From: a virus
Direction: 5' to 3' (one strand)
DNA length: 64,000 bases
Virus record (IMG/VR): IMGVR_UViG_3300021141_000706
A program made the position numbers and the translations under genes. Of the stretch, positions 1,041 through 61,942 are shown one piece after another; positions within the stretch are counted from its first letter, which is position 1, and the number at the start of each line of letters is the position of its first letter. The notes beneath the pieces were generated by a model. The model was given only the letters and a program-made list of their open reading frames with translations. It did no database searches and had not been told where the DNA came from.

Positions 1041-2210
1041 ATGAAATTAAAAAGATATAATCAATTTTTAGAATCTAAATCTGATATGTGGGATATCATT
1101 CCACAATCAGTGAAAGAGTTACACGAACTATTTCAATCAGCAGGTAAGAAACTTTACTTAGTTGGTGGTTCAGTGCGTGACTTCTTAACTGGTGATAAAC
1201 CAAAAGATTTTGACTTAGCAACCGATGCTCTTCCAGATGAAGTTTTGGAAATTGTCGGAGATAAATTTAGAACTAACCTTCAAGGTAAAGCCTTCGGAGT
1301 TGTTGTAGTTTACACTAAAGAAGTTCCAGAAGGAATGGAAATTGCTACATTCAGAGAAGATGTTTCAAAAGGTCGTAACCCAGAAGTTAAATTGGGTGTT
1401 ACTATTGAAGATGATGTTAAGCGTAGAGACTTAACTTACAACTCTCTTTTCTATGATTTAGATACAAGACAAATCGTTGACTTAGTTGGTGGTAAAGAAG
1501 ATTTACAATCTGGTATTACGAGAATGGTTGGTGATCCTATTGAAAGATTTGATGAAGATTCATTAAGAATTTTAAGAGCATTTAGATTTGCTTCAAGATA
1601 TGAACATCCTTTACATAAAGATACTGAAAGTGCTATTGAGAAAAGAAAACAACTTCAAAACATTGATCCAGAGACTGGTGAAATGAAAAGAATTTCTCAA
1701 GAAAGAGTTTGGGAAGAAATGAAGAAAGCTTGGAAACAAGCCAAAGATTACAGATACTACTTATCATTCTTTACTAAGTTTGATATGTGGGATGAAGTAT
1801 TTCCTGTTGCTAACATCAATACTAATTTAGTTGATTCAAAAGACTTTATAGTTGTTGTTGCTAACTTATTTAAGAACGAATCCACTTTAGGTTTGACTGA
1901 TAGACTAGCTCAAGAATATAAGATTGAATTAGAAACAGCTACTAAAGTAACTTTCTTACTTTCGTTATTAAATTTCAAAGTAGAAGATGTATTTGATATT
2001 TACAAGAAAAGACAACAATGTGCTATCACTGATGCTACTATTTTAGAGTGGTTAAAAGTCGAAGGTATTGATACTGATACTTTAGTTAAGTTTGTTGAAT
2101 ACAAACCAAGTGTATCTGCTCAAGAACTTATGTCTCAAGGATTCAAGGGTAAAGATCTTGGTGATGAAATCAAAAGATTAGAGATAGAAAAATTTAAACA
2201 AATGCTATGA
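1041..2210 (+). CDS. cca: CCA-adding tRNA nucleotidyltransferase (class II)
   Basis: Motifs LVGGSVRD..PKDFDLAT, EIATFR, DVKRRDLTYN, RFDEDSLRILRAFRF, RISQERVWEE, and C-terminal GFKGKDLG. Preceded by an MKLKRYNQFLES leader. Confidence 0.9.
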   Translation: MKLKRYNQFLESKSDMWDIIPQSVKELHELFQSAGKKLYLVGGSVRDFLTGDKPKDFDLATDALPDEVLEIVGDKFRTNLQGKAFGVVVVYTKEVPEGMEIATFREDVSKGRNPEVKLGVTIEDDVKRRDLTYNSLFYDLDTRQIVDLVGGKEDLQSGITRMVGDPIERFDEDSLRILRAFRFASRYEHPLHKDTESAIEKRKQLQNIDPETGEMKRISQERVWEEMKKAWKQAKDYRYYLSFFTKFDMWDEVFPVANINTNLVDSKDFIVVVANLFKNESTLGLTDRLAQEYKIELETATKVTFLLSLLNFKVEDVFDIYKKRQQCAITDATILEWLKVEGIDTDTLVKFVEYKPSVSAQELMSQGFKGKDLGDEIKRLEIEKFKQML

Positions 2211-2671
2211 CACATAAATTAACTTATTTAAAAGATGCGGTTGGGAATAATTATGTTGGAATTAATATTCCAAATGAAGTTGTCGAACCACATTTAGAAA
2301 AACTAAAAGAAATTTTAGGTGAAGAAGATTTTGAAATCTTTACACAAAATCAAAAGACGAGAGATCACGGACACTATCACATTACTGTTATTAATGTAAT
2401 GGATTGTAACCGACTTTCTAAAGAAATGGGAATGGCTAACTTTGTTAAATCAGTTGAATTAGCATTTGATTATACTGTAGAAGATTTAGAACTATTAGGT
2501 GTTGGCATGGCTTCTAAGAATGCCAATACCGCTTACTTTATAGTTTGCTCATCTGATAGTTTAGATGCCGTTAGAACTCGTTTTAACTTACCTAAACAAG
2601 ACTTTCATGTTACACTTGGTTTCAATACTAAAGATGTGTTTGGTGTTCCAAAAAATTTGGTAATAAATTAA
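2207..2671 (+). CDS. 2H phosphoesterase (2',3'-cyclic phosphodiesterase / 2'-5' RNA ligase-like)
   Basis: Two HxT motifs (YHITV, FHVTLG) about 75 aa apart. ATGA overlap with cca. Confidence 0.8.
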   Translation: MTHKLTYLKDAVGNNYVGINIPNEVVEPHLEKLKEILGEEDFEIFTQNQKTRDHGHYHITVINVMDCNRLSKEMGMANFVKSVELAFDYTVEDLELLGVGMASKNANTAYFIVCSSDSLDAVRTRFNLPKQDFHVTLGFNTKDVFGVPKNLVIN

Positions 2672-2722
2672 AACTTTTTTTAATTTCTAAATAAGAAAGA
2701 AACAATTATAAATAAATTTAAA

Positions 2723-2998
2723 ATGGAACTATTTAATTATTACAGCATGGACGAGTGTCCAGAAAGAAAAGTGATCAAAAAAAGACTTACTCAATTAGAA
2801 GAAGAAGGCAAAATCGATTTTGATATCGATGGAGACATTCTTAAAATATCAGACTTAGATTTAGATGAAGATGAGGTTGCTGAGTTAGTAGAAATGTTTG
2901 ATAAATATGATGTCTTTCCTTATCCTGATTATGAAGAAGGAATAGATGATGAAGAAGATGATTACTATGATGGTTTTGACGAAGAAGACGATTATTAA
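2723..2998 (+). CDS. Small, highly acidic hypothetical protein
   Basis: 91 aa, D/E-rich throughout, with an acidic/aromatic tail. Confidence 0.7.
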   Translation: MELFNYYSMDECPERKVIKKRLTQLEEEGKIDFDIDGDILKISDLDLDEDEVAELVEMFDKYDVFPYPDYEEGIDDEEDDYYDGFDEEDDY

Positions 2999-3024
2999 TA
3001 TCAAATTGAATCAATAAGACCTAA

Positions 3025-3057
3025 TAAAAAAACCCAATCATTTGATTGGGTTTTTTA
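3025..3057. terminator. Bidirectional intrinsic terminator
   Basis: A-run, acccaatca-tt-tgattgggt, T-run, between convergent genes. Confidence 0.8.
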
Positions 3058-3058
3058 T

Positions 3059-5872
3059 TTAGAATGTATATTTAACTGAGGCTGATATTGTTTGACCAAA
3101 GTTTATGTTTTGCCAATTGTTATCACCTTTATCATACTTTTGATTACCGTTCAAGTCTTGGAAGTAAACTAAGTCTTGAGCTAAGATATCTTTTATATTA
3201 AGTTTTGTTTCAAAGTGTTTACCAAACTTTTTAGATACTTGAAAGTCTATAACATTTCTTCCATTTTCCCAAACTGAAGGCTCTTGAATATTACCTACAA
3301 TGTAAATTCTTTGACCAATTACATTATAAGATAAAGTTACTGTCATATCTTTCTTAGGTGTATTATAGAATATACCAGAGTTTATAATGTAAGGTGACTG
3401 ACCTTGTAGTGGTCTGTTCTCACCAGAACCAATGAAGTGACTCATATCAACTGTTGACTTTATTAAAGACAGGTTTGAATAAACTGTTATGTTATCCCAT
3501 ACTTTACTTTCTTTCTTACAGAATGTTCCTAAGTTATATCTAATTTCAAATTCAGCACCGATATTTGTTACTTTATTTACATTAGCGTAGTAAAGTTCAG
3601 GTGCTCCTGATGTACCAGTTCTATTGATTAACTCAATTGGATTCTCAAATGTTTTATAGAAACCAGATACAGATATGATTTGACCTTTACCAGGATACAT
3701 TTCCCATCTAACATCAAAGTTATCTATGGTAGCTCTTTTCAAATTAGGGTTACCACTTACTATATTATCAATAACAAAGTTATAGAAACTAAATGGTGCT
3801 AACTCTCTAAACTCTGGACGAGAAACTGTTCTATAATAAGAACCTCTTACTTTCATCTTTTTGTTTAACGAATAAACTATATTAACTGATGGTAAGAAAT
3901 CAACAACTGTTGTATCAATATGTTTATTTTCGTTAGAACCAAACTCAATATAATTAAATTGTTGATTATATGACTCTATTCTTAAACCACCAATGATTCT
4001 AAACTTCTCACCAATCTTTGTATCTGTCATTGCGAAAGCCGCATTTAGAAAAGAGTTGGCTTGATAACTATCATCAACATTTGTAGCTTCATCTAATTTG
4101 AAACCTCCTTGACCATTTGATAAAAGACCCATATTTTCTTGAGAGAATATCTCATCTGGTCCTAATAGTAGTAAGTTACTATTGAATGTGCTACCTGTTG
4201 GTTTGTATTGAGAGAACCCTAAGTTTCTTGATGAGAAATCACGAGTTCTGTATTGATGCCATCCACCTATCTTAAATTCATTTTCTATTTTATTAAAAGT
4301 AAAAGGAATAGACCAATCATAATTAGCACTGTAGATTTTCTCAGATGATTTAGACCAAAACATATTACCAGCCGCAGTTGGAATAGTTCCATTTTGTTGA
4401 ATAATAGCTGTCCATTGTTGAGTTGTATCATCTTCAAGTAATGAATACTTACGATAAACTAATCTTCTAAGATTTGGAATATCTCTTTTAACATCACTGA
4501 ATCCTAAATTCCAGTTCAATTTAGTTTTCTTAATCTCATGTTTACCATATAGTTGTTGAGTTAATAAATTGTTTTGTGTATACCAGAAGTTTGTTGATCT
4601 TTCCCATTGACGAGGATCATTATCCATCTCTCTAACACCGTTTCTAATATTTACTTTATCTTCTGAATTGATAGAATAAAGATTTTTGAATCTAATTATG
4701 TTCTTATCATTAATCTGATAAGCAAAGTTTAACATAGCACTATTCAAAATAGTTTGAGTAAATACAGAATCTTTCAATTCCATTTTTTGAACAACACCTG
4801 CTGATTGTTCTTCAAAGTCTCTTCTTACTGAGTTATTCATAGTAGAAGCACTTTGATAACTATAAGCGAAAGTTATACCAAGTGAGTTATCTTTTTTGAA
4901 TTTGATATATCTACCAATCGAGTATTGTAAACTACCAATTGGTAAAGCCAATCTTGATTTAGTTGACCAAGAAGTGTTAATCATTTTTGATAAATCCGCC
5001 TTATCTGACTTATTTAGAGTAGAAAAGTCTAAAGTACTTGGCATTGATTCAGGTAAACTTCTATAGTTAGAACCAAACCCTAAGAAGTCAGTAGAACTTC
5101 CTTGATAAGTTTTGAAGTTTTGAAATGTAGATATCGCATTGAATCCTAAACCATACTGAATACTTTGAAACTTAGAATCTTTTGGTTCAGATGTGCTGAT
5201 ATTAATAACACCACCAGCAAACTCACCTGGCATATCTGGTGAACCAGACTTCATAACAATTAGATTATCTAACATATTAGAAGGAAAGATATCAAATGAG
5301 AAAGCTTTTCTATCTGATTCTGAACTTGGTAGTGGAGAACCATTTATTAGAGCGAAGTTGTATCTATCATTTAGACCACGAATAACTACAAACTTATTAT
5401 CTTGTACAGAAGCACCACTCACTCTTTTGAATACATCTGATACTTTCGTATCTGGTGTTTTCTTAAAAGTTTCAGCATTAACACCATCTTGAACGACAGC
5501 ACTGTTGCTTTGTTGTTTAACTAAATCAACTGTTGATTCTTTATTAGCTTTAGCTTTAACTGTAACAGTTCCTATGTCTAAAGTTTTTTCCTTTAACTTT
5601 ATATTTAAAGTGTCTTTTGATGTCGCTTTAATGAATTGTGAATGATAACCCATGTATCTAAATTCTAAAGAGTAAGTAGGTTTATCTAAACCTTTCAATT
5701 CAAATTTACCATTTATGTCAGTTGTGGTTCCTTTTCCGGACTCACCTTGAATTAGTATCAACACGCCAATGACTGGCTCGTTTGAAATCGAGTCAGTCAC
5801 TGTGCCTGATATTTGTGAAAATGCTGTAAGTGTCGATATTAAGAATGTAAATATCAGTAAGAGTTTTTTCAT
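3059..5872 (-). CDS. TonB-dependent outer-membrane receptor, Bacteroidota type (CarboxypepD_reg-like N-domain, plug, beta-barrel)
   Basis: Signal peptide, ISGTVTDS..GTTTDINGKFEL, plug motifs IRGLNDRY and PGEFAGG, barrel motifs SRPEFRELAPF and GNPNLK, C-terminal YTF. Confidence 0.92.
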   Translation of the reverse strand: MKKLLLIFTFLISTLTAFSQISGTVTDSISNEPVIGVLILIQGESGKGTTTDINGKFELKGLDKPTYSLEFRYMGYHSQFIKATSKDTLNIKLKEKTLDIGTVTVKAKANKESTVDLVKQQSNSAVVQDGVNAETFKKTPDTKVSDVFKRVSGASVQDNKFVVIRGLNDRYNFALINGSPLPSSESDRKAFSFDIFPSNMLDNLIVMKSGSPDMPGEFAGGVINISTSEPKDSKFQSIQYGLGFNAISTFQNFKTYQGSSTDFLGFGSNYRSLPESMPSTLDFSTLNKSDKADLSKMINTSWSTKSRLALPIGSLQYSIGRYIKFKKDNSLGITFAYSYQSASTMNNSVRRDFEEQSAGVVQKMELKDSVFTQTILNSAMLNFAYQINDKNIIRFKNLYSINSEDKVNIRNGVREMDNDPRQWERSTNFWYTQNNLLTQQLYGKHEIKKTKLNWNLGFSDVKRDIPNLRRLVYRKYSLLEDDTTQQWTAIIQQNGTIPTAAGNMFWSKSSEKIYSANYDWSIPFTFNKIENEFKIGGWHQYRTRDFSSRNLGFSQYKPTGSTFNSNLLLLGPDEIFSQENMGLLSNGQGGFKLDEATNVDDSYQANSFLNAAFAMTDTKIGEKFRIIGGLRIESYNQQFNYIEFGSNENKHIDTTVVDFLPSVNIVYSLNKKMKVRGSYYRTVSRPEFRELAPFSFYNFVIDNIVSGNPNLKRATIDNFDVRWEMYPGKGQIISVSGFYKTFENPIELINRTGTSGAPELYYANVNKVTNIGAEFEIRYNLGTFCKKESKVWDNITVYSNLSLIKSTVDMSHFIGSGENRPLQGQSPYIINSGIFYNTPKKDMTVTLSYNVIGQRIYIVGNIQEPSVWENGRNVIDFQVSKKFGKHFETKLNIKDILAQDLVYFQDLNGNQKYDKGDNNWQNINFGQTISASVKYTF

Positions 5873-8458: not shown

Positions 8459-8543
8459 GGTCGGGTGGTGGAATAGGTAGACACGAGGGACTTAAAATCC
8501 CTTGCCCCTAAAGGGCGTGCGGGTTCGATTCCCGCCTCGACTA
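8459..8543 (+). tRNA. tRNA-Leu (anticodon TAA), CCA not encoded
   Basis: Acceptor GGTCGGG/CTCGACT, anticodon arm AGGGA-CTTAAAA-TCCCT, long variable arm, T-arm GCGGG-TTCGATT-CCCGC. Confidence 0.93.
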
Positions 8544-43852: not shown

Positions 43853-44356
43853 TTATTTCTTAATAGTGTTTACATCAGTCTTTTGGAAGTTATCAAAGTT
43901 CATAACTTTCTTTTCACCGTTCTTAGTTTGACCTGCGGTAAAGTCTTGTCTTTTAGCAAAAACATTTTTAAGAGCCTTCAAATCTAATTTCTTTTCTCTG
44001 GACTTTTTACCAGTTCTAGCACCATGATTAGAACCCATCACAGGAATCTTTTGAAACATTCTATTAGATCCACCTGGGTTATAAGGAACAGAGACATCAC
44101 CTGATCCAGCCTTACCACCACCTGATGCCCAACTTGTACCAATTGTTTGTCCTGCTAAACCTGAAGGTTGAGCATTAACAACAGCACCCATACCACCCAC
44201 TGAACCAGCAGGTCCGCCGGTAGCTGAAGTATTTTCAATTAATAATTCTCTTTGGGATATTTTCTCACAAAGTTTCAAATATCCTTCTTCAGAAGAAAGA
44301 TTTTCTTGTTCCATTTTCTCTTTTAAGAGATATAATTGATGTAATGACATTTTCAT
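43853..44356 (-). CDS. Gly-rich late protein
   Basis: LIE followed by a Gly-rich tract, AATATATA at 44361-44368. Confidence 0.7.
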   Translation of the reverse strand: MKMSLHQLYLLKEKMEQENLSSEEGYLKLCEKISQRELLIENTSATGGPAGSVGGMGAVVNAQPSGLAGQTIGTSWASGGGKAGSGDVSVPYNPGGSNRMFQKIPVMGSNHGARTGKKSREKKLDLKALKNVFAKRQDFTAGQTKNGEKKVMNFDNFQKTDVNTIKK

Positions 44357-59674: not shown

Positions 59675-60064
59675 TTAAATAAGTTTATCTAAAGAATTTC
59701 TTCTACGATATTTTTGTTTAGACTTTTCTACTTCATCTTCAATCATGTTGTTACCATATCCCATGTAGTTTCCATAATAAAGAAGTGTTGCGTCTCCTAA
59801 ATTCTCTTTAATACAATCATCACAGATAGCAATAATAAATTGGTCACCATCGTGTGTTGATCCATAACCGGCATCAATGATATGAATAATACCATTATCA
59901 ATCATTTCATTATTAACATTAACTAAACTACCATCTGGTCTTTTAGAATCTTTCCAAAGAATATCTTCTTCGTGTTGAGGTGGTGAATCTTCGGTTGAGA
60001 TTTTAGAACTAACAGGTGGTGTGTTAGGAATTACATTATTTTTCTTACAACAAATACAATACAT
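59675..60064 (-). CDS. Zn-binding hypothetical protein with C-terminal tag (RRNSLDKLI)
   Basis: CICC...GYGSTHDG...ICDDC. Confidence 0.72.
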   Translation of the reverse strand: MYCICCKKNNVIPNTPPVSSKISTEDSPPQHEEDILWKDSKRPDGSLVNVNNEMIDNGIIHIIDAGYGSTHDGDQFIIAICDDCIKENLGDATLLYYGNYMGYGNNMIEDEVEKSKQKYRRRNSLDKLI

Positions 60065-60210
60065 TATAAATTAAATATTTTTTTAATTTTCATTTTTCTT
60101 ATGAGTGCCTTTCTAATATTAACTCCAATATTATATGCTAATTGAGTTCTTGGATATAAACTAGCAAAGTCTAAATTTACTATAATCGGTGAAGTCTCTA
60201 TAGGTTCCAT
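60064..60210 (-). CDS. 48-aa micro-ORF not in the track: PolB motif-A-like peptide plus C-terminal tag
   Basis: MEPIETSPIIVNLDFASLYPRTQLAYNIGVNIRKALIRKMKIKKIFNL; TAATG coupling to the next gene. Confidence 0.65.
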   Translation of the reverse strand: MEPIETSPIIVNLDFASLYPRTQLAYNIGVNIRKALIRKMKIKKIFNL

Positions 60211-60323
60211 ATTCTTTTAATTTTTTCTTTTCTTTTTTCTTTTCTTTCCAATCTTTTAGCAAGTTGTAGTATTAAAGTAGTTTGATAACTCATAGACTCA
60301 CCACCTTTTATCATTGAATTCAT
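60198..60323 (-). CDS. 41-aa micro-ORF not in the track, essentially a helix plus the C-terminal tag
   Basis: MNSMIKGGESMSYQTTLILQLAKRLERKEKRKEKIKRIWNL; ATGA coupling to the upstream NTase gene (alternative starts 60314, 60293). Confidence 0.6.
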   Translation of the reverse strand: MNSMIKGGESMSYQTTLILQLAKRLERKEKRKEKIKRIWNL

Positions 60324-60925
60324 TTCTCAGCTACTTTTCTAAAGTCTGTTAAAATTTCATTTCTAAGTTCTCTGAATTCAGTATCTAATTCTTCCCAAGT
60401 CCATCTTTTACTTTTAATTTTATTCCAGATAAAGTTGGCACAAGAGAAGTCAGTAATTCTACCAGAGGTTGCCACTTGAGTAGCAAACATAGGAATTCTT
60501 AAAGAGTGAAATAAAGATTTAACTCCAATGTAATAATCATCTTGTTCTAACTTTTTCTTCGACTTCACCCAACTATTAGAACTAATATGTGATGTAGCGT
60601 GTCTCAGTTTAGCCAGGTTCAACTTTAAATCGTATTTGATAGTCTCTTTCAACTTAGCCCAATCAGGTGCCCAAATACACTCTAAATTGTTTATACGATG
60701 CCATTCTAAGTCAGCCTTAAACTTATCTGGAGTATAAACGTGAATGTTATATAAACCATTCTTAATTTCAATTACCTCAACAGAGTTATTAGCAACCATA
60801 ATGATATCCCAATCTGAGTCAGAGTTGGAAGTGGAATAAATTTGACTACCAAAAATATAAACATTGAACACACGACTTGTGTGTATTCCAGATGCTTTAA
60901 TTATTGTTTCTAATGTTGGTATCAT
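60320..60925 (-). CDS. Pol-beta superfamily nucleotidyltransferase with a helical C-domain
   Basis: YIFGSQIY.T...SDWDII, SWVKSKKKL, KSLFHSLRI. Confidence 0.8.
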   Translation of the reverse strand: MIPTLETIIKASGIHTSRVFNVYIFGSQIYSTSNSDSDWDIIMVANNSVEVIEIKNGLYNIHVYTPDKFKADLEWHRINNLECIWAPDWAKLKETIKYDLKLNLAKLRHATSHISSNSWVKSKKKLEQDDYYIGVKSLFHSLRIPMFATQVATSGRITDFSCANFIWNKIKSKRWTWEELDTEFRELRNEILTDFRKVAEK

Positions 60926-61143
60926 ATTCCTAACTCTTTTAATTTCTCTTTTCTAATTTTATCTAAACTGATTAAGTTTGATTCATGAACTCCAATTTTA
61001 GAACCTAAATCATTTATCAATTCAATGTAAACACCGTCAGAAGAGTAAACCACTAGACCATTCCAATCTCCTTCATATACTTTATTTTCAGTCATGTCAG
61101 ATCTTTTATGCCAATCACTTCTTGGTTTATATACCCATTTCAT
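60922..61143 (-). CDS. Small protein with C-terminal tag (IRKEKLKELGI)
   Basis: Coupled ORF; MTENKVY..LINDLG similar to 32018. Confidence 0.7.
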   Translation of the reverse strand: MKWVYKPRSDWHKRSDMTENKVYEGDWNGLVVYSSDGVYIELINDLGSKIGVHESNLISLDKIRKEKLKELGI

Positions 61144-61406
61144 ATTCCTAATTGTTCTAAAGTGTTATCTAATTTCAATTCTTTATTCCATTCTTCTAAA
61201 TCTTTCAAAGAATACTCACGACTAATCCATTTACCACCATATCCACTACTATCATACACTGCCTTTTCGGTACTATACCACACAACGGCTTTAGCTCTAT
61301 CATATTCAACATACAATCCATTAAACGGTGTTTCTACACTGATGAGTAAACCTCTACCATCTTTTGTATTTACTTCTTGAAATATTCTTAAAAAACTTGG
61401 TTTCAT
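61140..61406 (-). CDS. Small protein with tag variant (KLDNTLEQLGI)
   Basis: Coupled ORF. Confidence 0.68.
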   Translation of the reverse strand: MKPSFLRIFQEVNTKDGRGLLISVETPFNGLYVEYDRAKAVVWYSTEKAVYDSSGYGGKWISREYSLKDLEEWNKELKLDNTLEQLGI

Positions 61407-61942
61407 ATTCCTATCTTACTTAATATCTTACTTCTAATGTTTGCCTTTGTGTCCCAATAATCTTTCGTATCAAGATAATATAAATTCATACTACCTTTTG
61501 TTTGTGAGTTAAATGTTGGTTCTATAAATCTTATCTTCCAATCACCATCATCTTCATCTACATTTAGAATAACTAACTCTGTTCCTTTCGGAACTTTCCA
61601 CCAGTTTGGTTTCTGACTTTGGTCAGAAGTGTTAATGAACTTCCTAAACTGACCATCATAGTAAAAGTCTTTCTTAACAATAACAATCTCACCAGCCTCA
61701 GGAACATCATACTTACTTCTATCAAACTTAACTTTATCATTCATTATATTCATTCTAAAGATAACAAATAAACAAACAATAGTTATTGCTGATATACTCA
61801 CGAAAAGACCTGTAACGCCACCAAAATGTAAAGGTAGTGTAAATAAAAGAACAGATAACAACAATAAACTAAGTTTAATCATTTCATTATTATCTAACCA
61901 ACGATTGAATCTATAAAAACTATTTTTTAACATACTAACCAT
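61403..61942 (-). CDS. Two-TM membrane protein with C-terminal tag (IRSKILSKIGI)
   Basis: Two TMs followed by a beta-rich domain. Confidence 0.7.
   Translation of the reverse strand: MVSMLKNSFYRFNRWLDNNEMIKLSLLLLSVLLFTLPLHFGGVTGLFVSISAITIVCLFVIFRMNIMNDKVKFDRSKYDVPEAGEIVIVKKDFYYDGQFRKFINTSDQSQKPNWWKVPKGTELVILNVDEDDGDWKIRFIEPTFNSQTKGSMNLYYLDTKDYWDTKANIRSKILSKIGI

Follow-up and report, generated by a model that had tools for sequence, protein, structure and literature searches.

A tagged micro-protein family related to motif A of family B DNA polymerases in a clade of huge phages

Introduction

What is a 48-aa open reading frame (ORF) that reads as the motif A of a family B DNA polymerase (PolB) joined to a basic C-terminal tail, and what could such a peptide do for the phage that encodes it? 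The ORF lies on the minus strand of a 64-kb stretch of viral DNA (IMG/VR record IMGVR_UViG_3300021141_000706; hereafter, the window), which has 30% G+C, is ~96% coding under the standard bacterial code, and has uncultured huge phages of 635–642 kb as its nearest DNA relatives. The original prediction for this locus offered two readings, namely a captured polB fragment that is being turned into a new gene by the addition of a tag found on other proteins, or a decoy of the polymerase, for example for a host sensor. In the literature, we found no description of motif A micro-proteins or of the tag.

Genomic setting of the micro-protein gene

The 48-aa translation that had been read by hand from the minus strand was recovered exactly (Table 1), and so were both the overlap with the upstream 41-aa micro-ORF, which amounts to 13 nt, and the TAATG coupling to the next gene, in which the TAA stop of the micro-ORF and the ATG of the 129-aa gene have one base in common. 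The encoded micro-protein (P0001) consists of a short N-terminus, a PolB motif A segment, a variable linker, and the shared C-terminal tag.

Table 1. Features of the micro-protein locus in the window and of the split polymerase in the relative LR745206.1
Feature	Location	Strand	Basis or content
48-aa micro-protein gene (P0001)	60064..60210	minus	stop TAA at 60064-60066
Segment derived from PolB motif A (by alignment), residues 9-29	60124..60186	minus	Pfam, PHROGs, PDB, and hhalign alignments
Invariant core NLDFASLYP, residues 12-20	60151..60177	minus	translation, omega, cluster conservation
Shared C-terminal tag RKMKIKKIF, residues 38-46	60073..60099	minus	translation, tag pattern; predicted helical
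Upstream 41-aa micro-ORF, tail ..KIKRIWNL (tag variant)	60198..60323	minus	ORF list, tag scan
Downstream 129-aa gene, CxxC...CxxC, tag-like C-terminus	59675..60064	minus	TAATG-coupled to the 48-aa ORF
Pol-beta-superfamily nucleotidyltransferase, 201 aa	60320..60925	minus	Pfam Polbeta/NTP_transf_2; PHROG 388 E 3e-8
PolB N-half, 513 aa, LR745206.1	L004:385-1926		exonuclease domain, motif A, first finger helix
PolB C-half, 474 aa, LR745206.1	L003:442-1866	minus	second finger helix, motifs B and C, thumb

The most consistent neighbor of the micro-ORF is the downstream CxxC gene, a virus-only orphan, a homolog of which directly follows the micro-ORF in the relative LR756502.1. A 128-aa gene occupies the matching position in L001 and L146/L147, its homology being presumed from size and position. 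The nucleotidyltransferase is the usual upstream operon neighbor, with synteny in L001, L002, L007, and L146, and the upstream 41-aa micro-ORF has a 43-aa counterpart in an 816-kb relative. We discarded the idea that a programmed frameshift fuses the 41-aa ORF to the 48-aa ORF, since no slippery site was found by eye in the overlap, each of the two ORFs has its own tag, and LR745206.1 has a 41-aa ORF together with a separate long form of the micro-protein.

Two side observations can be added here. On a 590-bp metagenome contig, P0019 is a chimera of the N-terminal half of the micro-ORF and the C-terminal part of the nucleotidyltransferase, with a junction at a shared T-Q-V-A (12-nt microhomology), which could have arisen through misassembly or mark the junction of a duplication. 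In the window, a GC-rich stem at positions 8504-8536 with the T-arm-like sequence GGTTCGATTCC is probably a tRNA gene.

Relationship to the polymerase motif A

Three independent libraries (Pfam, PHROGs, and PDB) place residues 10–31 of the 48-mer on PolB motif A. The Pfam DNA_pol_B model matched the 48-mer with an E-value of 0.022 (residues 10–29 on HMM positions 60–79) and PHROG 262, annotated as 'DNA polymerase', with an E-value of 0.0029, and the profile of the micro-protein family retrieved from PDB almost only family B polymerases, all of them at motif A, with residues 402–426 of RB69 gp43 as the best match (E 8e-4). By alignment, residues 9–29 of the 48-mer correspond to the strand on which the catalytic Asp lies, plus the first part of the helix with the steric-gate Tyr. 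When compared with the PolB of the clade itself, the 48-mer matched the N-half with an E-value of 5e-5 by BLASTP, and hhalign of the micro-protein family against the clade PolB family gave a probability of 92.7% (E 4.3e-7). Individually, 47 of 102 members of the micro-protein family match PF00136. The window ORF is, besides, identical to some of the clade PolBs over ten residues (DFASLYPRTQ), a stretch that includes a Gln three residues past SLYP which canonical PolBs do not have. On sequence grounds, the core of the 48-mer is homologous to motif A of family B polymerases and the match is beyond chance, which bears out the original assignment.

Other polymerase motifs were not found. Motifs B and C were absent from all six frames of the 64-kb window, exonuclease motifs were absent from every frame near the micro-ORF, and when the six frames of the window were searched with the clade PolB HMM, the micro-ORF was the sole piece returned at E<1 (0.011), in agreement with the earlier remark that no other polymerase motif lies nearby. 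The 48-mer has the motif A pattern (D-x-x-S-L-Y-P-S, with the catalytic Asp), it has neither motif B (K-x3-N-S-x-Y-G) nor motif C (Y-G-D-T-D-S), and at 48 aa it does not contain a 3'-5' exonuclease domain with palm, fingers, and thumb. P0001 cannot be a polymerase, motif A being the sole family B polymerase feature that it has. It resembles PF00136 in the strand-turn-helix around the catalytic Asp and SLYP, but it differs from it in covering only ~20–25 residues (~40 in the long forms described below) and in having no predicted autonomous fold; it derives from a segment of a larger protein, the functional domains of which are gone.

Age of the family and selection

About 20 close homologs of the 48-mer were found, with lengths of 35–74 aa, and no longer or fused forms of the micro-protein occurred among the homologs searched. 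An exhaustive profile search extended the family to 107 clusters at 50% identity, nearly all of 37–94 aa and nearly all aligned over both core and tail. We define the family by a length of 37–94 aa and a core h-h-N-[FML]-D-[FY]-x-S-L-Y-P, followed by 12–17 residues and a tail of the type R-K-x-K-I-K-K-I-F, and the 48-mer of the window falls within this definition. Even divergent members are found at one locus, beside the nucleotidyltransferase, the 128/129-aa CxxC gene, or in a NAMPT context, which indicates that they are orthologs within one clade of huge phages. No relatives of the family were found in a genome collection that covers 185,579 bacterial and archaeal species with one genome apiece.

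The pattern of substitutions points to purifying selection on the peptide. The start and stop of the ORF are kept in all relatives, and the indels among them are in frame. Tree-based counts gave an omega of 0.48 for the 48-aa ORF (p 2e-5), with values of 0.66–1.29 for the other five frames. The core NLDFASLYP had an omega of 0.09 (13 synonymous vs 5 nonsynonymous changes, p 2e-6) and the tail one of 0.27 (p 3e-4), while the value for the linker between core and tail was 0.92. Synonymous changes were in excess in the sense frame alone, apart from a fainter signal of the same kind in one of the antisense frames (omega 0.66, p 0.013). Three residues, namely the catalytic Asp and the SLYP Leu and Tyr, are invariant (100%) across 102 clusters, and the key positions of the tail (R, K, I, and I) are conserved at 87–96%. 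In those cases where the PolB of the same genome could be compared, the shared peptide is written in different codons (e.g., Ser as TCG vs AGC/AGT), which indicates conservation at the level of the protein and rules out a recent copy of polB or recent gene conversion from it.

These results bear directly on the possibility that the ORF is a decayed remnant of polB or a functionless ORF that arose by chance. A single motif in a tiny ORF is what such an origin would leave behind, but the 64-kb window holds no collinear or flanking polB remnants, in this or in other frames, and neither the conserved ends and in-frame indels, nor the low omega of the whole ORF and in particular of its core, nor the presence of more than 100 clusters fit with relaxed selection; we consider this explanation extremely improbable. 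Over a hundred related forms under selection argue for a working gene, and, as far as comparative sequence data can tell, the 48-aa ORF is a real gene, old and selected, that belongs to an established micro-protein family.

The age of the family is also apparent from its long forms (>57 aa), which comprise 30 members. Those with at least 28 residues before the motif (23 long forms) have an extra N-terminal helix and a linker, and their profile aligns further upstream on PolB, reaching the VK-x-P strand located ahead of motif A (95.3% by hhalign, E 2.2e-8). This N-terminal extension of the homology appears only at the profile level with many long forms, is not significant by BLASTP in the 80-aa form of L007, and is of low confidence outside the core. 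By alignment with these forms, the 48-mer of the window is a trimmed version of the long form. Many members also keep the canonical Asn-Ile-x-Pro continuation of motif A that most of the clade PolBs have lost. Considering these traits, the original prediction is upheld in part: homology, synteny, and purifying selection support a captured PolB fragment that, with the shared tag, forms a gene of its own, but the proposed 'gene birth in progress' does not agree with a family of more than 100 clusters at 50% identity that sits at one locus across a diverse clade of huge phages.

Variation on the basic architecture was observed in a few members. P0205 has two motif A copies in tandem, in P0162 the tail occurs once more after the motif A unit, and two 71-aa genes on one short contig (L151/L152) are possibly paralogous copies.

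The shared C-terminal tag

The tail of the micro-protein is found on other proteins of the window as well. We searched the last 16 residues of the window proteins for the pattern R-x-x-[KR]-[ILV]-x-x-[ILVM]-[hydrophobic] and detected it at the C-terminus of 10 of the 95 predicted proteins, all of them of 200 aa or less. The same pattern had one match in 18,785 interior positions and a mean of 0.15 in shuffled C-termini, which corresponds to a ~250-fold C-terminal enrichment. The 48-mer (RKMKIKKIF) belongs to this set and the upstream 41-mer fits it too; the other tagged proteins are unrelated small domains, i.e., a DUF2158 protein, a zinc ribbon, and orphans. In the relatives, the tail of the family profile by itself finds many other tiny ORFs. 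Judging from this distribution, the tail is a real C-terminal tag common to many unrelated small proteins of these phages. Its retention where no gene comes after, together with its omega, shows that it is a feature of the protein and not a coupling signal.

The same data speak to the idea that selection acts on a DNA- or RNA-level element, such as a coupling signal or a duplicated target site of a homing endonuclease, and that the ORF is incidental. Polymerase motifs are common homing sites, and the ends of the ORF overlap the neighboring genes. Such an element would, however, not be expected to keep the peptide while the codons vary, to show a synonymous excess in the sense frame, or to hold on to the tag where no gene comes after, and its likelihood is therefore close to negligible.

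An exaptation of the peptide, in which a PolB-derived segment now has an unrelated binding or structural role within the set of tagged small proteins, would agree with the unrelated nature of the other tagged proteins and with the fact that the micro-ORF is always coupled to small orphan genes and not to replication genes. However, the invariance of the catalytic Asp and of the SLYP Leu-Tyr over more than 100 diverged clusters would then be a coincidence, and we regard this role as unlikely.

Short C-terminal docking motifs are known from several systems, among them the PIP-box, the clamp-binding tails of T4-type polymerases, the MuA-type recognition by ClpX, and the membrane helices of the MinD type. 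As a tentative parallel, the micro-protein tag resembles these in being a predicted helix of basic and hydrophobic residues that lies right at the C-terminal end or close to it, and its spacing, [D/E/N]-x-x-[I/L]-x-x-[I/L]-[L/I/F], is similar to that of a degenerate PIP-box. It differs from them in often having up to five residues after the motif, and in that clamp genes were not detected: the Pfam models for gp45 N and C, the beta-clamp, and PCNA had no match in the three complete relatives, which is a weak negative.

A possible second flavor of the tag was observed directly upstream of the nucleotidyltransferase, where three minus-strand genes (60922-61942) end in the variant tails ..K-L-K-E-L-G-I, ..L-E-Q-L-G-I, and ..L-S-K-I-G-I, the last codons of which overlap the next ATG as ATGA.

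A polymerase encoded in two genes

In the complete relative LR745206.1, PolB is encoded by two genes (Table 1), and the split is found clade-wide: IMG/VR has 66 loci of the N-half and 46 of the C-half (L020-L131), and the protein collection has over 1400 C-halves that stand alone. Where both halves are on one contig, they lie 95–115 kb apart. Because of this split, a free subunit without motif A exists in these phages. PolBs that are split at the fingertip have been shown to be functional and to reassemble from their fragments (PMC3061061), and the Asp residues of motifs A and C belong, in PhiKZ, to different subunits that meet in an interdigitated hydrophobic interface (PMC13648687).

The PolB of the clade, which is split at the fingertip, is comparable to the naturally split PolBs, i.e., the T4-like gp43 split at the fingertip, the N and C subunits of the PhiKZ DNAP, and the PolB of Methanothermobacter, in building its active site from separately encoded polypeptides, with motifs A and C on separate pieces (PMC3061061, PMC13648687). 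The distance between the halves is far beyond the 2 bp–3 kb described for the T4-like phages. The micro-protein, unlike the pieces of these split enzymes, comes as a tiny third polypeptide with a motif that the N-half already has, is accessory, and carries a tag that is unrelated to PolB. Its accessory nature follows from its absence in LR756504.1, a complete relative in which no micro-ORF was found despite a split PolB. In LR756502.1, moreover, the motif of the micro-ORF does not track the variant of the phage's own PolB, which argues against a tight co-evolution with the own polymerase.

The existence of a separate C-half raises the possibility of an alternative mini-subunit, in which the micro-protein would supply the motif A Asp and Tyr to the C-terminal subunit and so form an exonuclease-free, possibly low-fidelity polymerase. 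Both residues are invariant, as this would demand, and the reassembly of fingertip-split PolBs (PMC3061061) offers a precedent for it. Nevertheless, of the ~130 palm and finger residues that the N-half provides, the micro-protein has only ~25, its tail is the generic tag, no fold is predicted by AF2, and one relative does without the micro-ORF, all of which makes such an enzyme very unlikely.

The C-half gene itself showed two types of interruption. A GC-rich hairpin of 38–42 nt (-17 to -20 kcal/mol), with compensatory changes in the stem, was seen within the gene at L086 (~1600-1640), L108, L110, L115, L116, L118, L123, L124, and L129. The insert always comes after GCT CTT (CTT coding for Leu) and ends with CTA before the Lys AAA of motif B; a stop usually occurs within two codons, the length varies modulo 3, and uninterrupted alleles exist (e.g., L090). 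It is a candidate for a translational bypass of the T4 gene-60 type or for an RNA excision. Polymerases are not mentioned in a survey of gene-60 homologs, and we found no description of such an element for polymerase genes. The second type is an insertion of ~185 aa inside motif C (Y-G-D-S...) in L123-L125 (about 1750-3480). It is probably an intein, inserted where polymerase inteins classically occur.

Predicted structure and possible mode of action

The structure prediction of the 48-mer by AF2 has an unstructured N-terminal stretch of 14 residues, followed by one long helix that runs from SLYP through the tag (residues 20–45, pLDDT 82.5). In the long form, two terminal helices are predicted with confidence and the motif segment with low confidence (pTM 0.29). 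The lack of an autonomous fold for the motif segment in these models suggests a displayed linear peptide that needs a partner. In the active site of PolB, the motif A Asp binds metal and the Tyr is the steric gate. As it is in a PolB active site that the invariant Asp and Tyr matter, the simplest inference is that the peptide still sits in a palm of the PolB type.

Based on these considerations, the micro-protein probably acts as a molecular mimic, this being the most plausible reading of its features. As to what it mimics, we tentatively favor the interface of the PolB palm, with the separately encoded C-terminal subunit as the most likely docking partner, a proposal that we regard as quite possible while falling somewhat short of an even chance. 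According to this scheme, the motif A segment would be unstructured alone and would dock, by strand addition and helix packing, in the place that motif A normally takes in the PolB palm. The docking site would be on the separate C-terminal subunit, which carries motifs B and C and the thumb and is the obvious candidate partner. There, the micro-protein could cap, hold, or compete for the subunit in place of the N-terminal one, and the tag would add a second, generic docking function. That protein fragments can inhibit by occupying native interfaces has been demonstrated previously (PMC11831152). The micro-protein can be compared in this respect with the microProteins of plants and animals and with the FragFold fragments (PMC11831152), which are likewise parts of larger proteins with the functional domains gone. 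MicroProteins keep an interaction element, and by analogy the phage micro-protein may act in the same way; it differs from them in its phage context, in having a buried catalytic motif instead of a dimerisation domain, and in the shared tag that is appended to it.

A complex prediction for the micro-protein family with the PolB C-half scored 0.45, and one control with an unrelated peptide scored 0.43, a result that speaks neither in favor of binding nor against it. Several observations do not fit well with a mimic of the palm. The split-PolB relative that has no micro-ORF and the mismatch between motif and own PolB in LR756502.1 count against this proposal. In addition, since the tail is the generic tag and has no recognisable remnant of a finger helix, only ~20 residues would be left to provide specificity.

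Capsid fragments and wider implications

A search of the three complete relatives with the model of the T4-type capsid protein (Gp23) retrieved, besides the capsid genes, several ORFs of 67–79 aa. One of these, a micro-ORF of ~75 aa on the minus strand of LR745206.1 (255082-255243; L156), ends in the shared tag, and its body corresponds to residues 494–539 of the phage's own major capsid protein (BLASTP E 1e-7). Further tiny ORFs matching Gp23 are located at 440206 in LR745206.1, at 466252 in LR756502.1, and at 415907 in LR756504.1. The similarity between the capsid and the PolB micro-ORFs suggests a common logic, in which a segment of an essential phage protein is joined to the tag, and this capsid fragment in a relative makes the PolB micro-protein appear as one case of a wider pattern.

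The capsid analogue would be just as compatible with a target other than the polymerase, for example a sensor of the host or a competing phage, which also weighs against the palm mimic. The micro-protein might be a decoy or adaptor consisting of bait and tag, directed at a host defense sensor or at the replication protein of a competing phage, with the tag either sequestering the target or delivering it to a common hub such as the phage-encoded Clp protease or some other docking partner. The occurrence of the tag on many unrelated small proteins and on the capsid-fragment micro-ORF of LR745206.1 would be expected for such an adaptor, and a ClpP gene is present within the same region. Most members, moreover, keep a motif A of canonical appearance and not the variant of the clade, as would be expected if the target recognises PolBs in general. 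On the other hand, motif A is buried in the folded polymerase and is thus an unlikely surface epitope for a sensor, and with a portal HMM the three complete relatives yielded no additional small ORFs; a decoy or adaptor is a serious alternative but, in our view, an unlikely one.

More broadly, we speculate that these phages have a set of bait-and-dock proteins in which segments of their own essential proteins (PolB motif A, capsid) are combined with one common docking tag, an idea that we put forward as a rather unlikely one. Within such a set, the fragment would capture a partner subunit, the homolog of a rival phage, or a host immune sensor, and the tag would route the captured complex to a shared hub. 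A sharper variant would have the PolB micro-protein turn the free C-terminal subunit into an exonuclease-free enzyme.

A stand-alone peptide with a polymerase catalytic motif under strong selection is not recognised by current phage annotation or by Pfam, and such ORFs are skipped by gene callers or labelled as 'DNA polymerase elongation subunit'. The family described here provides a concrete case of a fragment-derived micro-protein in phages, occurring beside a naturally split polymerase, and the tag and the capsid analogue point to a modular use of core-gene pieces in building small regulators or counter-measures. Should the target be a polymerase subunit, the micro-protein would add a new level to the control of the replisome; with a host sensor or a rival phage as the target, it would represent a new principle of anti-defense or of an inter-phage weapon.

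A further similarity to a capsid protein was observed within the window, where a 167-aa ORF on the minus strand (43853-44356) has a stretch of 26 residues (44132-44209) that matches residues 50–75 of the major capsid protein of the relatives with ~60% identity (E 6e-4); this stretch may be a shared propeptide or targeting segment.
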